Positions 2,212 through 48,426 are shown, counted from the stretch's first letter. The stretch: 64,000 nt of DNA from an uncultured virus (IMG/VR IMGVR_UViG_3300034012_002207) (IMGVR_UViG_3300034012_002207), one strand, 5' to 3'. Numbers and translations: made by a program. Notes: generated by a model from the letters alone, not told the origin.

Positions 2212-5200
2212 CTAAGGTGATATTGTTGTTAATGTAATATCAGTTAATGCGCTTACCAAACTTTCATTTCCTGCGGCATCGACCATTCTGCATGCAATTC
2301 TATATTTAATTCCTGAAGCACTAATTCTTGGACTTGCAAAATCCAGTAGATTTACATCAACATAGGTTGCAGAAGTATTTAGAGTTATTATACTAGCATC
2401 CGTAGTAGACCAAAAGTCTCCAGTTCCAGTATTTTTAAATATTTTAATTTTAAAGTATTTAAAATCATTTGGTAAAATTCCTACTACAGTAGTTACTCTA
2501 AGGACTTTGCCCAAGCGTTTTACTGATATACTAGAAACTAAAGCACGGTTTATTGTTAAACCAGCTACTTGATGAGTAGCCCAAGCGGTCCAAGGCCCTA
2601 CTATAGTATCACTAGTTAAATATCTTAATCTATATTTATAACTTTCTCCAGCTATTACATCGCTTATAGTAATAGTTCCAGAAGTAAATTCAGAATTAAT
2701 TACTTTAGTATTACTATTATCTATATCTGCAACTGTTGCGTATTTATATTCACACTGAACAAATTTTGTAGTTACCGGAATATCATCAACTGTTGCATAA
2801 GATATTTTTATATTATACTTATTAACTCCAGGAGATATTATATCTACTGCTCGTTCATCGCTATAAATTTGAGTTACTATAGGAGTTTGATTATTGGTAA
2901 AACTATTTATTAATCTTGCTGGAGGTAAGGTTATTTGAGTTTCAAATATAATACTAGAGGTTAAATTTTTGTAGTCTGTAAAAATATTATAAGAATCTGT
3001 AACTCCGTAGTCCATTAGGGTAAGTTTAGCAGTTTTATTTGTGCTAGGCTCTATACTAATTACAAGTAAATCTTGACTTTCTTTATTTAGTTCACCAAAC
3101 ATAAATAAATTATCGTAGTCTAGCAATGTTGAATTTCTTATGCCAGGCATTCCGGGGGTCTCAGTACTTATAGGATTTAACAAATGTACAAATCTATACA
3201 TTCCGGATTGTAGAGTTATGATTCCTATAGCATTAGTAACTGTTTCATCAATTCCTACATTTGGATAACTAATAGTATTATTTGTTCTATTAATGGTTAC
3301 AGGTATATTAGTAGCTGCAATGGCTGGATAGTTTTGAGAACTAATACTAATAATATTTGTTTCATCAAAAGGTATTGTTCCACCAGTTATAGTAGGGCTT
3401 AAGTTTATAGTTAATACATTATTTTGTCTGGTAAAACCTGTAAATACAAAAGTAGTTTTTACTTGAGATGTTGTACTTTGTCCTGTTTTTCCTCTAAATC
3501 TAATTGTATATATTTTGCCATTACTTATGGGTACGTTTTCTGTTAATTCTACAAGAGTATAACTAGTATTTGTAATATAAAAGTTTTTTACTCTGCCTGA
3601 AGCTAAGCCCCAAGCAGGCACATCATGAGTAACTTTTACTCTATCCCCTCTGTTACATACTAAGTATTCTAAATCTGCATTTAAACTATAAACTTCTCTG
3701 CGTAGTTTAGCTTGTGCAAAGTGCCATTTAGCATGATCTACTACTATGGCTTCATTGGTTATACCAGGTAATGTAATACTTTCAAAAAGTTCTGCATTTT
3801 GTTCGGTTTTGTCGCTATTATAAACAATTGTTTCTACTTGTTGATAATTTTGTTCTTCATCATAAAAACTTACTTTTAATCCATCTGGTTCTTTTGCCAG
3901 CCCACGTACACCTTCGAATCCCCAACTATTATGTGTAGTAAAATGTTGAACAATAGTAGTTTTAGGTTCATCTATTACAACTGTCCACTTACCGTCAATT
4001 AGTGCCGGACTAGCTCTGCCTGCTGCACAAATATCGCGTAAAACGTCTAGTATACTTCGCTGGTTACCTACTACAGCATTATATGTATACTTATAAGTTT
4101 TAGTTACTTGTGTTGAATTTGGTCTAGTATAAGTTATTGTTCGCGAAGTATTACAATAATTATACCAATATTGTAATTGTGGTATATTTATTTTTTCAGC
4201 AATTTCGGTATCTAGTATTCTTTGAGGATTTGCAGGGTGAGTTAATACATGAAAAAATAAACTAGCAGGATTATTGGTTACTTCGGTAAAGGTTGTACCT
4301 GGAGTTGAATTAATTGTTATATTGCCATTACCATCTAATGTACCAAGAGGTTTGCATCTACTAGATACTAGTGCATTTATACCTTCTAATTGATTGCTTA
4401 GCTGTCCTTCCGCTTTTATACTGTATGCACTTTTAGCTAAAGTGCAATCCTTGGGGAGTTTCATTGGAAATCTATTACTAGTATAAGTTGCGCTTAAAAA
4501 TACTACATCATGCATGTAACGATAATTTGGATCGTCATCAACATTATCTCCACTTATTCTACGTACTTGTACTTGAATTAATTGCGATGTAGAAAAAGTT
4601 TTGGTTCTAGTAATTGTATAAGCATCTTTTTTATCACCTGATATTGTAAATTTTTCCCAAGGAATCCATACATTACTGTTTGGATCGTGCTTATACTGTG
4701 TTTCTATATACACTGAATGGCTAGACGTAGTTCCATTAGTGGTTAAAATCTTTCTCATACCTTGTGGCATATGAAAAGCAAGGGTAAGTTCTGTAGCAGT
4801 TTGAGTAGAACTTGCAGAAACCCAAGGACCAGGTGTTCCAAATACTGTAGTAGTTGGGCTTAGTATAGGACGTTCATAGTCATTATAACTCCAAAAATTT
4901 CCAGTTTCTGTATCATAAAAGTCCTGTTGGTGATACCCTATAATTTCACCGCCAGTTACTGTAGGCTCTGCGGGGCCGTCACATACTAATAAAACATTTA
5001 CTGTATCTTGCTCAACATCTCTTGCATAAATACTATTAAATAAAGCTATTCCTGCAAAAGTATCATCATAACCATTTAAAGTGGCTCCTTGTTGTATAAT
5101 ATAATTATTAATATCAACATCGCCAATTTTTTGATTAGTAATTTGAAGTGGACCAAATCCCCACACTACTGCGGTGGTTAAATAAGAATTACGCTCTTCA

Positions 5201-20409: not shown

Positions 20410-21723
20410 TTATCTAGTAAACGAGTATAAGCAGTAGCGGAGCGCATCCATAAGGTGAGAGTACCGATCATGCTTAGGCTTCTCACGTGTAAGCCCCTCG
20501 CGATCATCCCACTTGTACTGGTTGAGTGCCTCTACGGTCTTGGTACAGCCCGGATCTACCCATAGCTTACCCTGTGCGACTAGGGTTTGCACGTACGCGA
20601 TGCCGGGAAGTACATCTTTACGAGCACGCACAGTCGGAATATCATACTGGTAGGCAAGGTCTTGAGCAAACTGTGCTGCCGCACTATCTATAAAGATTAG
20701 TTCAATCTGGAACTCGTCTGCCATGTTTTTAATCTGTTGGGCATGATACTGGGTAGTCTGCTCGGCCTCCTCGTACTCACGTATAACCCAGAACCTATCC
20801 TCGCCTGCATCACGTGGATCCGGCAGGTAGGCTACTACTAGGAAGGCTGTGGGGTCTCGGTATCCCGGGTCGCAGCCCGCAATAAACTGAGTACTCTGAT
20901 CCAGCTGCAGTTTGGGGTCCCAAGGCACGATGTTATCATCCCGTAACTCATAAATCTGACCCTCAAATGTAGTGAATGACGCAAGGTATTCCTGCTCAAA
21001 CTCCTGCTTGCTCATAGACCTGCGGGCTTCTTCAATATCTTTAGGGCTCATCCTGGGATTTTCTTCATAATCTGCCCAGAGTGAACACCACTCCGGAAAT
21101 TCTGCCGAGAACCCACGATCCCAGAATCGGGAGAACCAGTTTTGCTTGCCACGAGGTGTGGAGATAAATATAGCTTTAGCATCTACCCGGTCTAGGGTCG
21201 GACGCAGCTGGATATTAAATGCCTCCTCACCGCCGTCGCCTAAGGCAGCCTCGTCAAAGAGTATAAGCTGGTACGATCTACCAACTGTGCTATCTACTGT
21301 GGACAGCGAACCCATCCTGACTGTAGACCCGTTGCTCAGCTCAATTACCCGGTCCTTTAGGTTATCCCGCTCCACCTCCAACTCAAAGTGTTTGATAAAC
21401 CTGCGTTGCAGTTCAAAACTAATGCTGGACAGATTATAGTTGGGACTGATCACTAGGACATTGCAGTTTGGCACTAGGCTTACTAGTTGCGCAATGATAT
21501 TTGCAATATAGGTTTTGCCTAGACGGCGTGCTAGTGCGGCTACAACAAAACGGTATTGTGGATTGTTGACCGCATTGATTAGTGCCAGCTGCGCGCGGTT
21601 TAGCTGATCCCAAGCTCCGATGAGCTTAAGATAGTTTTCGATTGGTAGTTTAATAAAACGGGTATGTGGGTCGAATTCTTGAATGCCGTCCCACTCTACA
21701 TCGGGTCTCGACACCTTAAGCAA
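20410..21723 (-). CDS. terL: terminase large subunit
   Basis: ARRLGKT Walker A, LILFDEAA Walker B, ISTPRG, nuclease GCDPG, HLMDALRY. Confidence 0.95.
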   Translation of the reverse strand: MLKVSRPDVEWDGIQEFDPHTRFIKLPIENYLKLIGAWDQLNRAQLALINAVNNPQYRFVVAALARRLGKTYIANIIAQLVSLVPNCNVLVISPNYNLSSISFELQRRFIKHFELEVERDNLKDRVIELSNGSTVRMGSLSTVDSTVGRSYQLILFDEAALGDGGEEAFNIQLRPTLDRVDAKAIFISTPRGKQNWFSRFWDRGFSAEFPEWCSLWADYEENPRMSPKDIEEARRSMSKQEFEQEYLASFTTFEGQIYELRDDNIVPWDPKLQLDQSTQFIAGCDPGYRDPTAFLVVAYLPDPRDAGEDRFWVIREYEEAEQTTQYHAQQIKNMADEFQIELIFIDSAAAQFAQDLAYQYDIPTVRARKDVLPGIAYVQTLVAQGKLWVDPGCTKTVEALNQYKWDDREGLTREKPKHDRYSHLMDALRYCLYSFTR

Positions 21724-22183
21724 GTTTGTCTCCCAGCAATTTCTGGATTAGCTGGCCATATCGTGTACCGTCACCGCCCTCGTTGATCTGCACATTAACC
21801 TGATTTTTAGGCCCACCTTGCCGTAATTTCTCCAGCTGAATCTCACGGTCTAGCAATTCCATGCTCATTTTGTGTGAGAGTGCAAGTAGTTCCGATATGT
21901 CTTTGGTGCTGCCCGTTTGCGACTCCTCCAGCTCCTGAAACTTTTGACTAATAAGTGCGTCCATGGCACGGCGCATACGAAACCGGTTGTTGAAGCCTAA
22001 GTCGAAGAATACCTGGTTAATGTAGGATTTCACATCTGGACGCTTTAGGATCTGGGCAACGTCGTGGGGTTCTAGCTGGAGGACAGTGGCTACCTCCTGG
22101 GTGTTTTGGTGTTCTAGGTAGAGATTAGCCACCTCCAATAATTCGGGGCTTATGTTGATGGTGTCGGTGGGTAGTTGGTTCAT
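21716..22183 (-). CDS. terS: terminase small subunit (T5-like)
   Basis: ISPE.LEVAN.YL HTH, GFNNRF; immediately upstream of terL. Confidence 0.8.
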   Translation of the reverse strand: MNQLPTDTINISPELLEVANLYLEHQNTQEVATVLQLEPHDVAQILKRPDVKSYINQVFFDLGFNNRFRMRRAMDALISQKFQELEESQTGSTKDISELLALSHKMSMELLDREIQLEKLRQGGPKNQVNVQINEGGDGTRYGQLIQKLLGDKLA

Positions 22184-22779: not shown

Positions 22780-23100
22780 ATGGCTGAAAAGACTGCGAAC
22801 TACACTTCGGAACAAACCCTTAAACTTGTGGCCGATTACAAGGCTGGGGTACAGGTTGAGGATATTGCCAAGGCAATGGGCAAATCGGTTCGGTCGATTG
22901 TTGCTAAACTGTCCCGCGAGGGTGTATACCAGAAAAAGGAATACACAACCAAAACGGGCGAGGCTCCCGTCAAAAAGGATGAGCACGCTGATATGATCGG
23001 CAAGGCACTGAACCTTTCAGAAGGGGATACCGATTCACTTGCCAAAGCAAACAAGCGCGCGCTTGCTGCGATTGCGGAGTTTATCCGCAGCAAGGCGTAG
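22780..23100 (+). CDS. T5 A2-like DNA-binding protein (copy 1)
   Basis: NYT.EQT..LV..Y..G..VE.IA..MGKSVRSIVAKLSREGVYQK; L.KANK.AL. Confidence 0.75.
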   Translation: MAEKTANYTSEQTLKLVADYKAGVQVEDIAKAMGKSVRSIVAKLSREGVYQKKEYTTKTGEAPVKKDEHADMIGKALNLSEGDTDSLAKANKRALAAIAEFIRSKA

Positions 23101-23330
23101 CACACTACGGCTCGGGGCGCAAGCCCCGAGGCCTGGGAGCGTGTTGTATTTTTACAACACGCTGGCGCCAAAATTATATCATATAATTTTGGCCCGTGTC
23201 AAGCATTTAATTGTAACAATTTGTAACAGCGTGGTTTTTTGGTCATTAGGGTTTTCCTTATATGCCCTGGGTTGCACAATCCCCAAAAACCTGTATAATT
23301 CTCTACATGGACAAAACACAAGGCAACAAA

Positions 23331-23915: not shown

Positions 23916-24089
23916 GGTAAACCCAGGTGTTGCGGAAACGCAACACCTGGGCGCCAATTTTATCATATAAAATTGGCGGGTGTCAAGGGTTTTTGCAAAA
24001 AAATTTTTCTATGGGCGTGAGCGTGTCGATAGAAAAATACAATGGCACCTGGCTTGCACTAGGCGCGATTTTCCTGTACTATCTTACTC

Positions 24090-24431
24090 ATGAACTCAAA
24101 CCCGCTCTTAAAACCTTGGCAAGATGCTTGCCGGATTTGGCCGGAACTGGAATTGCACAACCCGCCAACCTTCAAAATCTCGGAACGGCTAACCCGTACC
24201 GCTGGCTTGTGCATTGTGGAGACTGGCGAGATTACCCTCAGCGGCCCATACTTGCGCGAATACCGGCGTGAAATGATGGGGCAAATTCTCACCCATGAGA
24301 CTGCACATTATATCGACTACTGCCTGAACGGATGGCGAAAATATAAGCGGCATCACGGCAAACCATGGCAGGAAATCATGTATACTCTAGGGTATGAACC
24401 GAAACCCTTTCACACAATGGAATTAAAATAA
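24090..24431 (+). CDS. SprT-like zinc metalloprotease
   Basis: RLTRTAG, LTHETAH, HGKPW. Confidence 0.85.
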   Translation: MNSNPLLKPWQDACRIWPELELHNPPTFKISERLTRTAGLCIVETGEITLSGPYLREYRREMMGQILTHETAHYIDYCLNGWRKYKRHHGKPWQEIMYTLGYEPKPFHTMELK

Positions 24432-24904
24432 TGGCAATCAAGCGCGTTAGAATTTACGACATGGACGGAACCATTGTATGCTCGCTGCATCGTTACCGGA
24501 CCGTCATCGATGAGCGTGGCGAGCGTATCGACCTAGACTACTGGCGCGAGAATGAATACCGCGCGCTTGACGATTCACTCTTACCGCTGGTCGAAGAATA
24601 CTGGCAAGACCTTGACGATCCTGAAACGTATACCATAATTGCGACTGCGCGCGTACTAGGCGAACCGGATCGAGAATTTATCCGCGACACTCTAGGCGAA
24701 CCCGATTATATCGTTTCGCGTAAACAGGGCGATACGCAATCAGGTCGAACCCTCAAAATCGGTGGACTAGCAAAGTTTTTCAACCTTGTCAACTTCCAGA
24801 CTGACGATGTTGTTTTTTATGAGGATAATGTGGACTACCTTAAAGCAGTCTGCGACCGTTTCGGTATCCGTGGAGTTTACATTCCAAGCAAGCAGGGACA
24901 CTAA
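24431..24904 (+). CDS. HAD-family phosphatase
   Basis: IYDMDGT, IATAR, K, FYEDN motifs. Confidence 0.8.
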   Translation: MAIKRVRIYDMDGTIVCSLHRYRTVIDERGERIDLDYWRENEYRALDDSLLPLVEEYWQDLDDPETYTIIATARVLGEPDREFIRDTLGEPDYIVSRKQGDTQSGRTLKIGGLAKFFNLVNFQTDDVVFYEDNVDYLKAVCDRFGIRGVYIPSKQGH

Positions 24905-25315
24905 TGAAAACTGCCTTTTGCTTCCTACTGGTCGGTCATCTGGTAACAACCTCTCGATACAGGGCGCGCGAATACCTTGAGGAGGAACCCGTAATGTGGC
25001 AATGGGTTGAAGGACGATAGGGGCATACGCCCCTATTATTTTGCCCAGGCCATGTGATGTTATAACATAACATTGTTTCACATGAAACAATGTTATGTTA
25101 TAACATCACACCATGCTGGCGCCAATTTTACTATTAAAATTGGGCCGGTGTCAAGGACCAAATTGTAAATAATTGTAACAAAACCTGGCCCGTGTCGTAT
25201 TTTGTACACAAGGGTTTGCCCCACTAGAATTTTTTGCATGGGGCTGGATTCTGTGCTAGAATCTGGGTGTGGCAATTGCCGCGCGCGATTTCCGGCGCTT
25301 TCCGGTAAAGGGTAG

Positions 25316-26615: not shown

Positions 26616-26890
26616 ATAAAACCCCGAAAGGGGTTTTACTTTGCCAGGCCTATGTGATGTTATAACATCACACCCGTGTGATGTTATAACATCACACCTT
26701 GCTGGCGCCAAATTTTATCATATAAAATTTGCCCGTGTCAAGGGTTTTCTACAAAATATTTTTCTATCGGGGTCGCCTAGTCGATTAAAAAATACAATCG
26801 CTTGCCCAGGGCGCAGGGCTAGATTTTCGTGTAGAATCTTTTCTGTGGCGGGTGCATGGGGCGCTTGCCAAAACTGTGAAGGGTAGCAAA

Positions 26891-27217
26891 ATGGCAGAAA
26901 AAGCCGTGAACTACACTCCCGAGCAAACCGCGCAGGTTGTCGCGGATTATCTCGCGGGTGTTACCGTGGAAAGCATTGCCGAAAATCTCGGCAAATCGGT
27001 TCGTTCGATTGTGGCAAAATTGTCGCGCGAGGGTGTTTACCAGAAAAAGGTTTATACCACGAAAACCGGCGAACCCGTTCAGAAAAAGGATATGACTGCG
27101 GATGCTATCGGTCGAATTCTGAACCTGAGCGAAGCTGATACCGACTCGCTTACCAAAGCGAACAAGCGCGCGCTGAAGGCGATTTTTGATGCGCTTGCCA
27201 ATTCCAAGCCTATCTAA
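26891..27217 (+). CDS. T5 A2-like DNA-binding protein (copy 2)
   Basis: close paralog of 22780-23100. Confidence 0.75.
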   Translation: MAEKAVNYTPEQTAQVVADYLAGVTVESIAENLGKSVRSIVAKLSREGVYQKKVYTTKTGEPVQKKDMTADAIGRILNLSEADTDSLTKANKRALKAIFDALANSKPI

Positions 27218-27233
27218 CTAGGCAAGGATTGTG

Positions 27234-27263
27234 CCAGCCCCGACTCCGGTCGGGGCTTTTTTT
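27234..27263 (+). terminator. intrinsic terminator
   Basis: agccccgac-tccg-gtcggggct followed by T-run. Confidence 0.85.
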
Positions 27264-27278
27264 CGGCCCGGCCCAGCC

Positions 27279-27690
27279 TGGCACAGTTCTTGCTAAGGCA
27301 AAAACTGTGCCAGGCGCTGGCGCCGATTTTATCATATAAAATCGGCCCGTGTCAAGCGCAGAATTGTAACAATTTGTAACCGTGGCTTTTTTACCACAAA
27401 GCAAAATTCGTGCCAGGCCTAGATGAGAATGATTCTCATTCGCACCAAGCAAAATTCGTGCCACTAGCAAGATTCGTGCCAGCCTAGCGAAGTGAGCACT
27501 TACTAACCGGACCAAGTTAGTGAGCACTTACTAACCGGACCAAGTTAGTGAGCACTTACTAACCTCCAGGGCAGGTTGCGCCAGTGCAAAACCTTGGCAA
27601 GTGCAAAATCTTGCGCGTGCGCCAGTGCAAAACCTTGGCAAGTGCAAAAACTTGGTCTTCCTGCGCCAGTGCTAAAGTGGCAAATCGAAA
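27279..27690. repeat. repeat/palindrome cluster, injection-stop-signal-like
   Basis: 5 TGGCAC-N5-TTGC units, 3 x 28-bp tandem repeat, 2-3 x ~31-bp repeat with 41-bp period. Confidence 0.85.
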
Positions 27691-27887
27691 AATCTAGTCT
27701 TGCCCGCGACCGCTAAGCCATGTATAATATTTATATTGAGTCAGCGATTAAAGGAACAACATGAACAAATTTGTGCCACCGGATACCGTAGGCGATTTAC
27801 CTGACTGGTTGAAGCCTAAAAAATCTTGACTTGATTCCCAAGCCTAATCCCTGTATAATATTTATATTGATTGATTGGAGAACCCAA

Positions 27888-28196
27888 ATGACTGACAAAG
27901 TAATGAACTATACCCCTGAACAAGTTCAGGAACTGGTCCAGAAGTATCAGCAAGGTGTAAGTGTTGAGCAACTGGCTGAGCAGGTTGGTAAAAGTGTGCG
28001 TAGTGTGGTTGCTAAACTTTCGCGCGAGGGTGTGTACGTAGCGAAGACCCGGACTACACAGGCGGCCCGGGTTACCAAAGCTGAGCTGGTCGAGCGCATT
28101 GCTAAGGTGTGTGATCGGAATAGTGAACAGTTTGAATCGCTGGAAAAAGCAAATCAGGATGTTTTGACCCGCCTGGTCGAAGTGCTCAAAGCCTGA
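27888..28196 (+). CDS. T5 A2-like DNA-binding protein (copy 3)
   Basis: NYTPEQ...GKSVRSVVAKLSREGVY; GGAG RBS. Confidence 0.75.
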   Translation: MTDKVMNYTPEQVQELVQKYQQGVSVEQLAEQVGKSVRSVVAKLSREGVYVAKTRTTQAARVTKAELVERIAKVCDRNSEQFESLEKANQDVLTRLVEVLKA

Positions 28197-28670: not shown

Positions 28671-28836
28671 ATTTGCGGTAGGGCGCCAATATTATACAGT
28701 GCTAAAGCTATATGTGTCAAGAGCAGATTTGTTGGGGTTCTGACCCTAAGCCGCGGCAAGTCGGTACAAGTTGTGCTCACAAAACAAAAACCCCCAAGGC
28801 TTCCACAGCTTTGGGGGTTTTTTCACTTTATACGGT

Positions 28837-29148
28837 TTAGGGTCGGTTATTCCTACTTAATTCCCGTTCTATGACCTCAAGCACACCTTTATTGACCTTT
28901 TCCAGACTTTCGAGCAGTTCAAGGTTCATGTTGAGCAGTAGGGCGATTCGTTCGATGTATTCTGACTTCTTAACCGGGACCTCACCGCGTTTGTTTAGGT
29001 ACTGTTTTTTCTGGTACACCTCGAGGGAGCTGAGCTTGGCAATTATGCTACGAGTTGGCACCTGGAGCTCTTGGGCAAGCTCCTCTACTGGGACACCTTC
29101 TCGGTATCTTTGCACTAGACGGTCAGTGATTTCTTTAGTATATTTCAT
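28837..29148 (-). CDS. T5 A2-like DNA-binding protein (copy 4, convergent)
   Basis: MKYT.E....LV..Y..G..VEELA..L...RSIIAKLS...VYQKK; LESLEKVNK. Confidence 0.7.
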   Translation of the reverse strand: MKYTKEITDRLVQRYREGVPVEELAQELQVPTRSIIAKLSSLEVYQKKQYLNKRGEVPVKKSEYIERIALLLNMNLELLESLEKVNKGVLEVIERELSRNNRP

Positions 29149-29152
29149 GTTG

Positions 29153-29935
29153 TTAGTCGTCCCATGGCATATCTGCGACTTTAACGTGTTTTGGACCCTC
29201 AGTCGCCACAACCGAAAAAATCTCGTCGGGTAGGAGCGGCGGTGGCATACGATCCCACTGCCAGGGGTCTAGGATTAAGTATTGTGTTCGTAGCTGTGGA
29301 TGGCAAACCCAGATTTGTGTCAACATTGTAATCGCCAGACGAGGAATCTCACGCCATGGAGTGGGTAGTCCAGTAAGCTGCCAAGTTGTAAGCGCACTTT
29401 TATACTGACCTTGTTTTTGTCCAGTTTTGTACAGCAACCCCTGCTGGCGAATTTCGATGAGCTCTTGTGACCCTAAATCGCGGAAGTGTGGGTTATGGCT
29501 AGCCCACAGCAAACATTCGTAAAGTTCTTTACTAATCACACGATCCAAGCCTTCCAGCGGCCAGCTCTGGTATGGAACTCCCCGATCTCGACGTTGTGCT
29601 AGTAGGATAGTAGGAGCTAGACTACTCCAGTTGACAGAGCTGGGATGGCTTTGACGTTTGATCAGGTGGCTGCGATTTACTCGATTAACTAGCCTCCACA
29701 AGCCCAGCTCCCAATCGCTGCAAATGTTGATACGGAGTGTTTTAGGAATGTCTACCCTACCTTGAGGGTCTAGGATAAGATTCCAGCGATTGTAGTGTGC
29801 TAGAATCTGAGGCCACAACCACTCCTCTTTGGTCTGGAGTTGTTGTTCGGCCACCCAAACCTCCAGCAGTTTAGGGTCGACCTGGTTGGCAATTTCATGG
29901 AGTGGAATTGCTTCCAGTTTATTTAGTTTTTGCAT
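29153..29935 (-). CDS. hypothetical protein (Trp-rich)
   Basis: 260-aa ORF, operonic with the A2-like gene. Confidence 0.75.
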   Translation of the reverse strand: MQKLNKLEAIPLHEIANQVDPKLLEVWVAEQQLQTKEEWLWPQILAHYNRWNLILDPQGRVDIPKTLRINICSDWELGLWRLVNRVNRSHLIKRQSHPSSVNWSSLAPTILLAQRRDRGVPYQSWPLEGLDRVISKELYECLLWASHNPHFRDLGSQELIEIRQQGLLYKTGQKQGQYKSALTTWQLTGLPTPWREIPRLAITMLTQIWVCHPQLRTQYLILDPWQWDRMPPPLLPDEIFSVVATEGPKHVKVADMPWDD

Positions 29936-47880: not shown

Positions 47881-48064
47881 ATACTATGGCTTGGGTATGG
47901 ATTATACTATTTTCTGTGTTAGGCACTGGCGGCGAGCACGGAACTAGAGGTGCATACTCTAGCAGAGCTGAGTGCGAACAAGCACTAGCCAAACTTAAAC
48001 TAGACTACGAAACTAAAGGTAAAACCCTAGTTGGTAGTTGTAGTGTTACGCAAAAGAAGATATA

Positions 48065-48372
48065 GTTGTATGAAGTTAACCCAAAGGTGCTTTGGACGCG
48101 GGTTCGACTCCCGCCTGGTCCACCAGAAACATTTTTGTCCATGTATTTGGGAACGGAAAGATAAACCGTGAGAATGTTTCTGATGGGCTAGTCATGGTTT
48201 CGACAGGGTGCAGAGTAGGAAGATGGACAACTCGGCAATGCAGAAGCCGTAGGGCTGGGACTACCCGGCTAGAGAAGCAAACAAACTAAACGCAAACGAT
48301 GAAACGTTCGCATTAGCCGCCTAAACTCGGCTTAGGGTTCCAGGTTATCCTCGTAACAGAAAACCTGGACTT
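48065..48372 (+). ncRNA. ssrA: circularly permuted (two-piece) tmRNA
   Basis: T-arm and CTGGTCC-ACCA (ends 48125) precede 5' strand GGGCTAG (48185); G3-U70; tag ANDETFALAA* at 48292-48324; outer ends approximate. Confidence 0.9.
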
Positions 48373-48426
48373 AAATGGCCATTTGGCATTTTTATTAACA
48401 ATTCTTGCTCAACCGAGGAGAATGAG

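Follow-up and report, generated by a model that had tools for sequence, protein, structure and literature searches.

In the DNA of an uncultured virus (IMG/VR IMGVR_UViG_3300034012_002207), of which a stretch of 64,000 nucleotides was analysed (hereafter the window; the whole virus record is 97,811 bp long and 93% complete), two small genes for predicted DNA-binding proteins, gene A and gene B, are separated by a 670-bp untranslated repeat gap which contains an array of sites with the geometry of promoters of sigma-54 (RpoN). From left to right, the gap is occupied by the site S1, a terminator, a face-to-face pair of sites (S2 and S3), a module made of GGCGCC, a hairpin and GTGTCAAG, the site S4, a 17-bp palindrome, the sites S5 and S6, 2.6 copies of a 28-nt unit, five repeats of the TGCGCCAGTGCAAAA type and two sigma70-type promoters with a micro-open reading frame (micro-ORF) (Table 1). 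An earlier note on this DNA had listed five of these sites, and the coordinates and strands of all five are confirmed in the sequence; S1, on the minus strand, was absent from its list and adds to the five, so that the cluster comprises six sites in 260 bp, one on the plus strand (S2) and five on the minus strand.

Table 1. Features of the array, of the gap that contains it and of the neighbouring genes (positions are those of the window).
Feature	Position	Strand	Remarks
Isolated match TGGCACCTGGCTTGCA	24043..24058	+	overlaps a sigma70-like promoter; probably outside the system
dmp homologue (HAD phosphatase)	24431..24904	+	BLASTP against T5 dmp: 37% over 86 aa, E 6e-16
Gene A, 108 aa, small A2/D5/GcrA-like DNA-binding protein (predicted)	26891..27217	+	phrog_1725 (E 8.6e-07), phrog_323
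S1 TGGCACAATCCTTGCC	27222..27237	-	5 nt past the stop codon of gene A
Intrinsic-terminator-like hairpin and T run	27236..27264	+	ends gene A
Face-to-face pair S2 (27279-27294) and S3 (27297-27312)	27279..27312	S2 +, S3 -	TGGCAC-N5-TTGC, 4 nt, GCAA-N5-GTGCCA
Conserved module GCTGGCGCC / AT-rich hairpin / CGTGTCAAG	27316..27356	+	
S4 TGGCACGAATTTTGCT	27400..27415	-	exact core match, single site
17-bp palindrome ATGAGAATGATTCTCAT	27423..27439		single copy in the window
S5 and S6	27448..27463, 27466..27481	-	tandem, 18 bp apart
2.6 tandem copies of a 28-nt unit holding the palindromic 20-mer GTTAGTGAGCACTTACTAAC	27491..27574	+	
Five copies of TGCGCCAGTGCAAAA / TTGGCAAGTGCAAAA	27577..27676	+	kept in distant relatives
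Two sigma70-type promoters (27700-27728, 27831-27859)	27700..27887	+	lead into gene B
Gene B, GcrA-like/D5-like DNA-binding paralogue (predicted)	27888..28196	+	PF07750 (30.1 bits, cut-off 26.9), phrog_323

The clustering is far from what chance would give. Sites were sought with the consensus pattern, allowing no or one mismatch, in place of a position weight matrix from published E. coli sites. The pattern TGGCACNNNNNTTGCW has five matches where 0.13 are expected in 64 kb, a number reached in none of 100 shuffles; no additional copy is present elsewhere in the 97,811-bp record, and the reversed pattern, used as a control, has no match. With the 15-base core TGGCACNNNNNTTGC (TGGCAC-N5-TTGC), seven matches are found in the window against 0.15 expected (0 of 100 shuffles reach seven), and six of these seven lie within the 260 bp of the array (27222-27481). 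The GG-to-GC spacing, which the earlier note had described as exact, is indeed so: TGGCAC-N5-TTGC is exact in the six sites and is kept in every copy across 12 related loci. The extended sigma-54 consensus has a pyrimidine before TGGCAC, G or A after it, and A or T after TTGC. Around the six sites, C precedes TGGCAC in five, the next base is G in three and A in three, and TTGC is followed by T in four.

The remaining core match, at 24043, is also confirmed, as is its overlap with a sigma70-like promoter: read by eye, this promoter consists of TTGCAC, 17 nt and TG-n-TACTAT, just 5' of an ATG at 24090, and it is not listed by the promoter scan of the window. Because the site reads TGGGAC in two relatives (L012 and L013), it may be a chance match, separate from the array.

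Relatives of gene A were found at 63 viral loci, 14 of which have exact sites, and clusters occupy the same slot in 12: nine close relatives (L006-L014, gene A at least 89% identical) and three distant ones (L034, L051 and L053, 71-73%). Conservation was read from an alignment of the seven closest distinct sequences, in which the core of the sites varies in 2 of 60 columns and the spacers in 10 of 30 (Fisher p 2e-4), with 83 of 574 columns variable in the rest of the gap; when L013 and L014 are added, where one site is replaced, the figures become 13 of 60 for the core and 15 of 30 for the spacers. The replaced site is S4, which has other sequence in its place in both relatives, and S1 carries a single mismatch, in the first T of TTGC, in L012-L014. 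Copy number changes in 18-bp units, one extra unit being present at S5/S6 in the alignment of L006. In the other relatives that were read, the flanking modules are kept and different repeats fill the slot. These comparisons support the view that the motif is under selection as a protein-binding site with the geometry of sigma-54. Separately, in some near-identical relatives (L011, L006 and L012 were compared) the 34-bp pair is present as its exact reverse complement between unchanged flanks; as this alignment indicates, the centre of the palindrome flips in nature.

Judged by its genes, the phage is a distant relative of T5. The large terminase is 47-50% identical to enzymes of Vibrio and enterobacterial Demerecviridae, and matches to PHROG families comprise a T5-type replication set (D5-like regulator, split NAD ligase, DnaB, primase, PolA and helicase) and siphovirus structural genes, the last of which are terS/terL at 20410-22183 on the minus strand. 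The array is contained in a block of small genes on the plus strand that directly follows the terminase (about 22.3-28.8 kb). The block includes the dmp homologue, which also matches dmp of phage PG07 (E 8e-11), a SprT-like gene, and genes of the family phrog_1725, to which A2 of T5 (E 4.3e-52) and the A2 proteins of three Vibrio phages belong. Three small paralogues match phrog_1725 (22780-23100, gene A, and 28837-29211 on the minus strand); gene A has in addition weak GcrA and helix-turn-helix matches, and gene B is a fourth paralogue that matches the D5-like phrog_323 and GcrA only. Related phages have four to five A2/D5/GcrA-like paralogues each. Given the dmp homologue, the A2-family genes and a position beside the terminase as in PG07, the block is, on gene content, pre-early-like and resembles the DNA that enters first in T5-like phages. 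The phage record has neither a Sigma54_activat (PF00158) nor a Sigma54_DBD domain. Compared at the nucleotide level with 50,697 phage records, the region gave no match, nor did gene A or a 233-aa ORF in tblastn.

The same core motif is found in cultured phages of this family. Among nine Demerecviridae records scanned for exact sites, five have them: the Vibrio phages PG07 (three), X1 (three), D17 (four) and Javier, and the Pectobacterium phage My1 (the last two with one per terminal repeat), with no match to the reversed pattern in any of the nine. On the record annotation, all 12 unique sites belong to pre-early or terminal-repeat DNA next to A2, A1 and dmp: six fall within gaps of 0.9-1.5 kb that are free of genes, a seventh in an intergenic gap of 145 bp and the other five amid very small ORFs. 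All 12 have G after TGGCAC (position 7). PG07 and D17 even have a face-to-face pair, with a 3-nt gap and one mismatch (TGGCAT) in the second arm. The layout of PG07 is the same as here, with terminase followed by dmp, A1, A2 and small genes. Beside the cultured-phage sites stand DnaA boxes, the palindrome CTGTATATTTATACAG, palindromes of the form GAGAAT-n-ATTCTC and repeats of the CTGCGCC..AGTGCAAAA type, and the latter two classes occur both in the pre-early gaps of PG07 and in the gap described here; we take CTGTATATTTATACAG to resemble LexA sites and GAGAAT-n-ATTCTC to resemble Fur sites. In Javier (L200, about 490-520) and D17 (L199, about 4800-4860), sigma-54-like sites have a CTGTATATTTATACA(G/T) palindrome and a DnaA box no more than about 10-30 bp away. 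The cultured phages thus resemble the window in core motif and in place, and differ from it in having A1, DnaA boxes and the LexA-like CTGTATATTTATACAG, and in having one to four sites over several kb against six in 260 bp. Literature searches, which covered main texts, found no description of sigma-54 sites in T5-type pre-early DNA or of the sites in these cultured phages.

The face-to-face arrangement extends well beyond this family. A pattern of 20 specified bases with the 4-nt gap was searched in IMG/VR and is found in 75 contigs, where by a rough estimate, made with no computed control, far fewer than one would be expected by chance; 59 of the pair sequences are distinct, 53 of them from outside this clade. 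The spacers of the two arms agree at zero to two of five positions in 47 of these 53 (mean 1.5, against 1.25 by chance), and because they are thus not complementary, what is kept is two protein-type sites in fixed geometry, not a stem. At 53 of the 75 loci there is no protein in common with this phage within 5 kb (tblastn, E 1e-5). In those loci, further single sites are present in 31, and 43 of the 55 pairs lie outside ORFs of at least 100 aa and 12 inside, while such ORFs cover 63% of the DNA. Since the pair is common to many unrelated phages of different hosts, it points to a conserved host protein as binder, rather than to a phage-specific factor or a hairpin; sigma-54 is the sole conserved host protein with this specificity known to us. 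The recurrence of the paired motif in dozens of unrelated uncultured phages suggests that docking, or borrowing, of a host transcription complex may be widespread.

What the sites face in the window is largely empty. The earlier note had stated that they have no downstream gene, and this stands for the five minus-strand sites: the minus-strand ORFs at the array are solely one at 27210-27527, made of the repeats themselves, and one of 42 aa, so that five of the six sites face no credible ORF. The statement does not extend to the plus-strand site, which has plus-strand genes 455 and 580 bp downstream. The pair has another neighbour on its right. Read on the minus strand, the module at 27316-27356 gives TTGACA-18-TAAAAT with a TG element, a near-consensus leftward sigma70-type promoter (27355 to 27326, 11 of 12 hexamer matches), and the face-to-face pair lies about 7 bp downstream of its estimated start.

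Tentatively, and with somewhat less than an even chance of being right, we propose that selection maintains the six sites for the docking of host sigma-54 (RpoN) polymerase, which would act by occupancy in an untranslated repeat region of pre-early-like, T5-related DNA. The binding of sigma-54 itself, occupation rather than transcription as the function, and any link to DNA entry are all things we infer. The host holoenzyme, already present in the cell, would bind the sites and, because the phage encodes neither sigma-54 nor an activator ATPase, would remain there as a closed, silent complex. The sites would then work through being occupied, with no mRNA made, and the result would be a large and persistent protein obstacle on the early control region, which would cover the neighbouring leftward sigma70-type promoter and serve to mark or hold the stretch. 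There is a bacterial precedent for the first step: sigma-54 holoenzyme is in an inactive state when it binds DNA, and of the 135 sites mapped in E. coli most are silent (PMC4591121). The array shares with bacterial -24/-12 promoters of RpoN and with the silent E. coli sites the exact TGGCAC-N5-TTGC and the fixed GG-to-GC spacing; in E. coli, too, the holoenzyme may be inactive and many genuine sites have no gene to drive (PMC4591121). As in bacterial sites, core bases are conserved and positions of low information drift. Unlike bacterial sigma-54 promoters, six sites are packed into 260 bp of phage DNA, with an 18-bp tandem, an overlapping face-to-face pair and no activator gene. On this proposal, sigma-54 would be one of several interchangeable host proteins for which such phages keep landing pads, the DnaA boxes and the LexA-like and Fur-like sites of relatives being others.

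Could the sites instead be working, enhancer-dependent sigma-54 promoters, fired by an activator of the host? This is the main rival, and the exact -24/-12 core of all six sites speaks for it. In such a scheme the pair would act as a small bidirectional unit: each of its two starts would fall within the opposite site, with transcription proceeding outward, and the products would be leader or antisense RNAs or the downstream A2/GcrA-like operon. Placement elsewhere lends this real weight: two or three sites in L034, L051 and L053 aim at the micro-ORF and gene B, 330-400 bp downstream, one PG07 site lies 81 bp upstream of a coding sequence, and 38 of 43 non-ORF pairs in unrelated phages have at least one outward neighbour, three lying between inward-facing genes; the palindromic tandem repeats at 27491-27574 could moreover serve as activator sites. 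In the window itself, however, no credible gene lies ahead of five of the six sites, the genes already have sigma70-type promoters immediately in front of them, the phage record has no activator gene, and no enhancer site is known here, though no search for enhancer motifs was made. Orientation also differs between clades, with five of six sites leftward in the window clade and the reverse in L034, L051 and L053, the order of the flanking repeat families being the same in both, and copy number changes by 18-bp units. Reversal favours binding, because a binding function is independent of orientation while a promoter depends on it; together with the lack of a gene behind five sites, the 18-bp tandem, the self-overlapping pair and the position of the pair just downstream of the leftward sigma70-type start, it makes occupation fit better than a gene promoter, and we consider the promoter explanation rather unlikely.

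The likeness to sigma-54 sites might also be fortuitous. An operator or iteron for another protein, be it one of the flanking A2/GcrA-like paralogues or a different host factor, would suit a locus with four paralogous small genes for predicted DNA-binding proteins around the array; relatives that lack the motif have other lineage-specific repeats in the slot, as would be expected of co-evolving pairs of protein and site, and a weak dyad, GCA-N7-TGC, can be discerned within the motif. Yet conservation falls on an asymmetric set of bases (TGGCAC against TTGC), the same as those of the sigma-54 core, the paired motif recurs at the 53 loci that have no protein in common with this phage within 5 kb, and it is found also in Vibrio phages that have only remotely similar A2 proteins, all of which makes an operator improbable. 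The least likely reading is a purely structural role, as hairpin or cruciform, recombination or packaging signal, or replication origin, with the resemblance to sigma-54 sites incidental. In this clade the pair does form a 17-bp stem, which folds (-32 kcal/mol, z -7.6) together with the next hairpin, that of the module; unrelated palindromes occupy this slot in further module copies, the pair is flipped between near-identical relatives, and 16 of 67 pairs from outside the clade lie within 1 kb of a contig end where 7.2 are expected. Against this, four of the six sites are single, with no partner, the spacers of pairs outside the clade are not complementary, and what is conserved is the core bases and not the pairing, so that a structural role is to our mind very unlikely.

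Docking of the sigma-54 holoenzyme has to be set against several observations that weigh on the other side. (i), the sites are dispensable for the family, since 49 of the 63 related loci and four of the nine cultured phages (T5, DU_PP_V, VAC35 and Kamaji) have no exact site; the first 11 kb of T5 contain no sigma-54-like site even when one mismatch is included. (ii), the sites of L034, L051 and L053 point rightwards, towards the micro-ORF and gene B, and in unrelated phages crude ATG-ORF calls give 14 pairs with both neighbouring genes turned outward, 20 with one and three with none, which fits promoters. (iii), the sites spaced by 18 bp and the overlapping pair cannot all carry holoenzyme simultaneously, and about three or four complexes at most would fit. 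(iv), silent intragenic sigma-54 sites in E. coli had no measurable roadblock effect on the overlapping genes (PMC4591121). (v), docking presupposes a host with rpoN, and with no A1 homologue found in the record and no DnaA boxes in the block, a T5-type two-step injection is unproven here. These points bear directly on the two functions that the earlier note had suggested, which are partly supported. Its trap for sigma-54 polymerase agrees with sites of sigma-54 geometry under selection; with a capacity of about three or four holoenzymes, a pure trap at entry would be small. Its protein roadblock on the entering DNA agrees with sites that are not tied to genes, with the pre-early-like block and with the sites in the terminal repeats of cultured relatives; the stopping of entry by the complex would be a further, hypothetical step.

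As part of the same proposal, the region would correspond to the repeat regions within the terminal repeat of T5. In a preprint by Davison (bioRxiv 10.1101/866236), Repeat Region 3 of the left terminal repeat of T5 is the injection stop signal and contains paired DnaA boxes, and host DnaA is proposed to stop the entry of T5 DNA at the repeat regions. Common to both are a gene-free stretch of about 0.7-1.2 kb in pre-early or pre-early-like DNA; an abundance of direct and inverted repeats and of palindromes, in an order that relatives preserve more faithfully than they do the genes; consensus sites for a DNA-binding protein which the host cell already contains when it is infected (predicted in our case); A2-type genes on the flanks; and dmp nearby. 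The differences are that the host-factor sites here are sigma-54-like, with no DnaA boxes in the block (the box TTWTNCACA has five copies in the window, none of them between 22 and 29 kb), that no A1 homologue was found in this virus record, and that all genes of the block are on one strand. For this phage, a terminal repeat and a two-step transfer as in T5 are hypothetical. The words sigma, RNA polymerase, LexA and Vibrio do not occur in the preprint.

To our knowledge, phage biology has paid little attention to sigma-54, and the cause of the halt in T5 DNA entry after the first 8% is still unexplained. Conserved sigma-54 sites, clustered without genes in pre-early DNA of the T5 type, would provide a concrete host-factor candidate for this stop, and since cultured Vibrio phages carry the same sites, their role is open to laboratory tests. 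A bolder version, which we regard as decidedly improbable, is that host sigma-54 polymerase is an activator-gated lock on the first-entering DNA of T5-like and many unrelated phages. The closed complex would need no new protein synthesis and would hold or silence the control region; it would be released solely by an ATP-driven activator of the host, for example one that answers membrane or nutrient stress, so that the phage would sense the condition of its host before the remainder of the genome is committed, and the DnaA, LexA-like and Fur-like sites of relatives would be alternative locks. If true, this would be a general explanation for the 50-year-old T5 injection pause.

The host was sought through a permuted transfer-messenger RNA (tmRNA) at 48005-48394 (Rfam beta_tmRNA, 111 bits, gathering score 84), which is of the two-piece type, encodes the tag ANDETFALAA and lies inside a cluster of about 19 tRNA genes. 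It does not identify the host, because the tag is widespread (a degenerate ANDETFALAA pattern matched at least 120 stretches, from Burkholderiaceae, Neisseriaceae and Colwelliaceae among others) and because BLAST of the tmRNA gave only short matches to tag and T-arm, in standard order and not permuted; in 151 sampled genomes of one class, no beta_tmRNA scored above the gathering score. Three of three Burkholderiaceae genomes tried have a Sigma54_DBD domain, though they are not shown to be hosts of this phage. The DNA of the phage was found in 22 lake-water runs, and no RNA run is listed for the stretch. One report seemed pertinent: an rpoN mutant of Salmonella resists the T5-like phage Aji_GE, and glutamine or deletion of rpoS restores infectivity (PMC8744999). 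We rejected it as support, the effect of rpoN being indirect.

Whether the block is terminally repeated was approached through the record's ends and through contig depth. At its two ends the record matches itself at 96% over about 740 bases (positions 1-610 of the window and the far contig end). The match falls in a long ORF downstream of the tail genes, with many internal repeats, that runs off the end of the record; since both ends thus match in a repeat-bearing gene, the assembly closes on itself and the nominally linear contig broke in a repeat. Depth was taken as flat per-contig means from Logan contigs of four runs, in which related strains are present and strain mixtures are a possible source of differences. 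It is about twofold higher between about 21.79 and 29.0-29.24 kb in three of the four: in one run (X18) it is 11.1-11.9 in this interval, 6.4 to its left and 3.6-6.2 to its right; in another (X15) it is 13.3-14.1, with 6.3-6.4 to the right; in a third (X7) two long contigs have 25 and 17.1, about what a twofold block of that extent predicts; the fourth (X1) fits both models. We read this as faintly suggestive of a terminal repeat some 7.3 kb long, the right boundary of which would then be 1.3-2 kb away from the array. No molecule ends were seen in the contigs of the four runs, and contigs break at 27520 and 27620, within the tandem repeats.

The other elements of the gap form families of their own. 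Six copies of the module are present, all in one orientation (23160-23203, 23944-23987, 25112-25155, 26701-26742, 27316-27356 and 28680-28721), each made of GGCGCC, an AT-rich hairpin with covarying arms and GTGTCAAG, with a variable palindrome ahead of it; GGCGCC is confined to these six within the window, and the module is found also in the distant relatives that were read. On the minus strand, every copy reads TTGACA-18-TA(T/A)AAT (11-12 of 12 hexamer matches), from which the copies appear to be near-consensus sigma70 promoters that run against the direction of the genes. The palindromes ahead of two copies, at 26653-26698 (two adjacent and perfect, with the word TGTGATGTTATAACATCACA) and at 25053-25110 (58 bp, same word), occupy in their modules the slot that the sigma-54 pair holds in the next. 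The 17-bp palindrome between S4 and S5, to which the GAGAAT-n-ATTCTC palindromes of PG07 are similar, may be Fur-box-like, and the TGCGCCAGTGCAAAA / TTGGCAAGTGCAAAA repeats have a similar CTGCGCC..AGTGCAAAA stretch in PG07. LexA-type sites (CTGT-N8-ACAG) have two matches in the window against 1.28 expected and none in the array region, and an Rfam search of 22-52 kb returned tRNAs and the tmRNA only, with no match in the repeat region. The GTTAGTGAGCACTTACTAAC-class motif follows the sigma-54-like sites in L034 and L051 as well. Between the two rightward promoters lies the micro-ORF, of 22 codons (27761-27829), which is conserved in most close relatives and is replaced by a different small ORF in the distant ones. 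Far from the block, a 644-aa ORF at 16472-18406 matches both head maturation protease and major head protein families and looks like a fusion.

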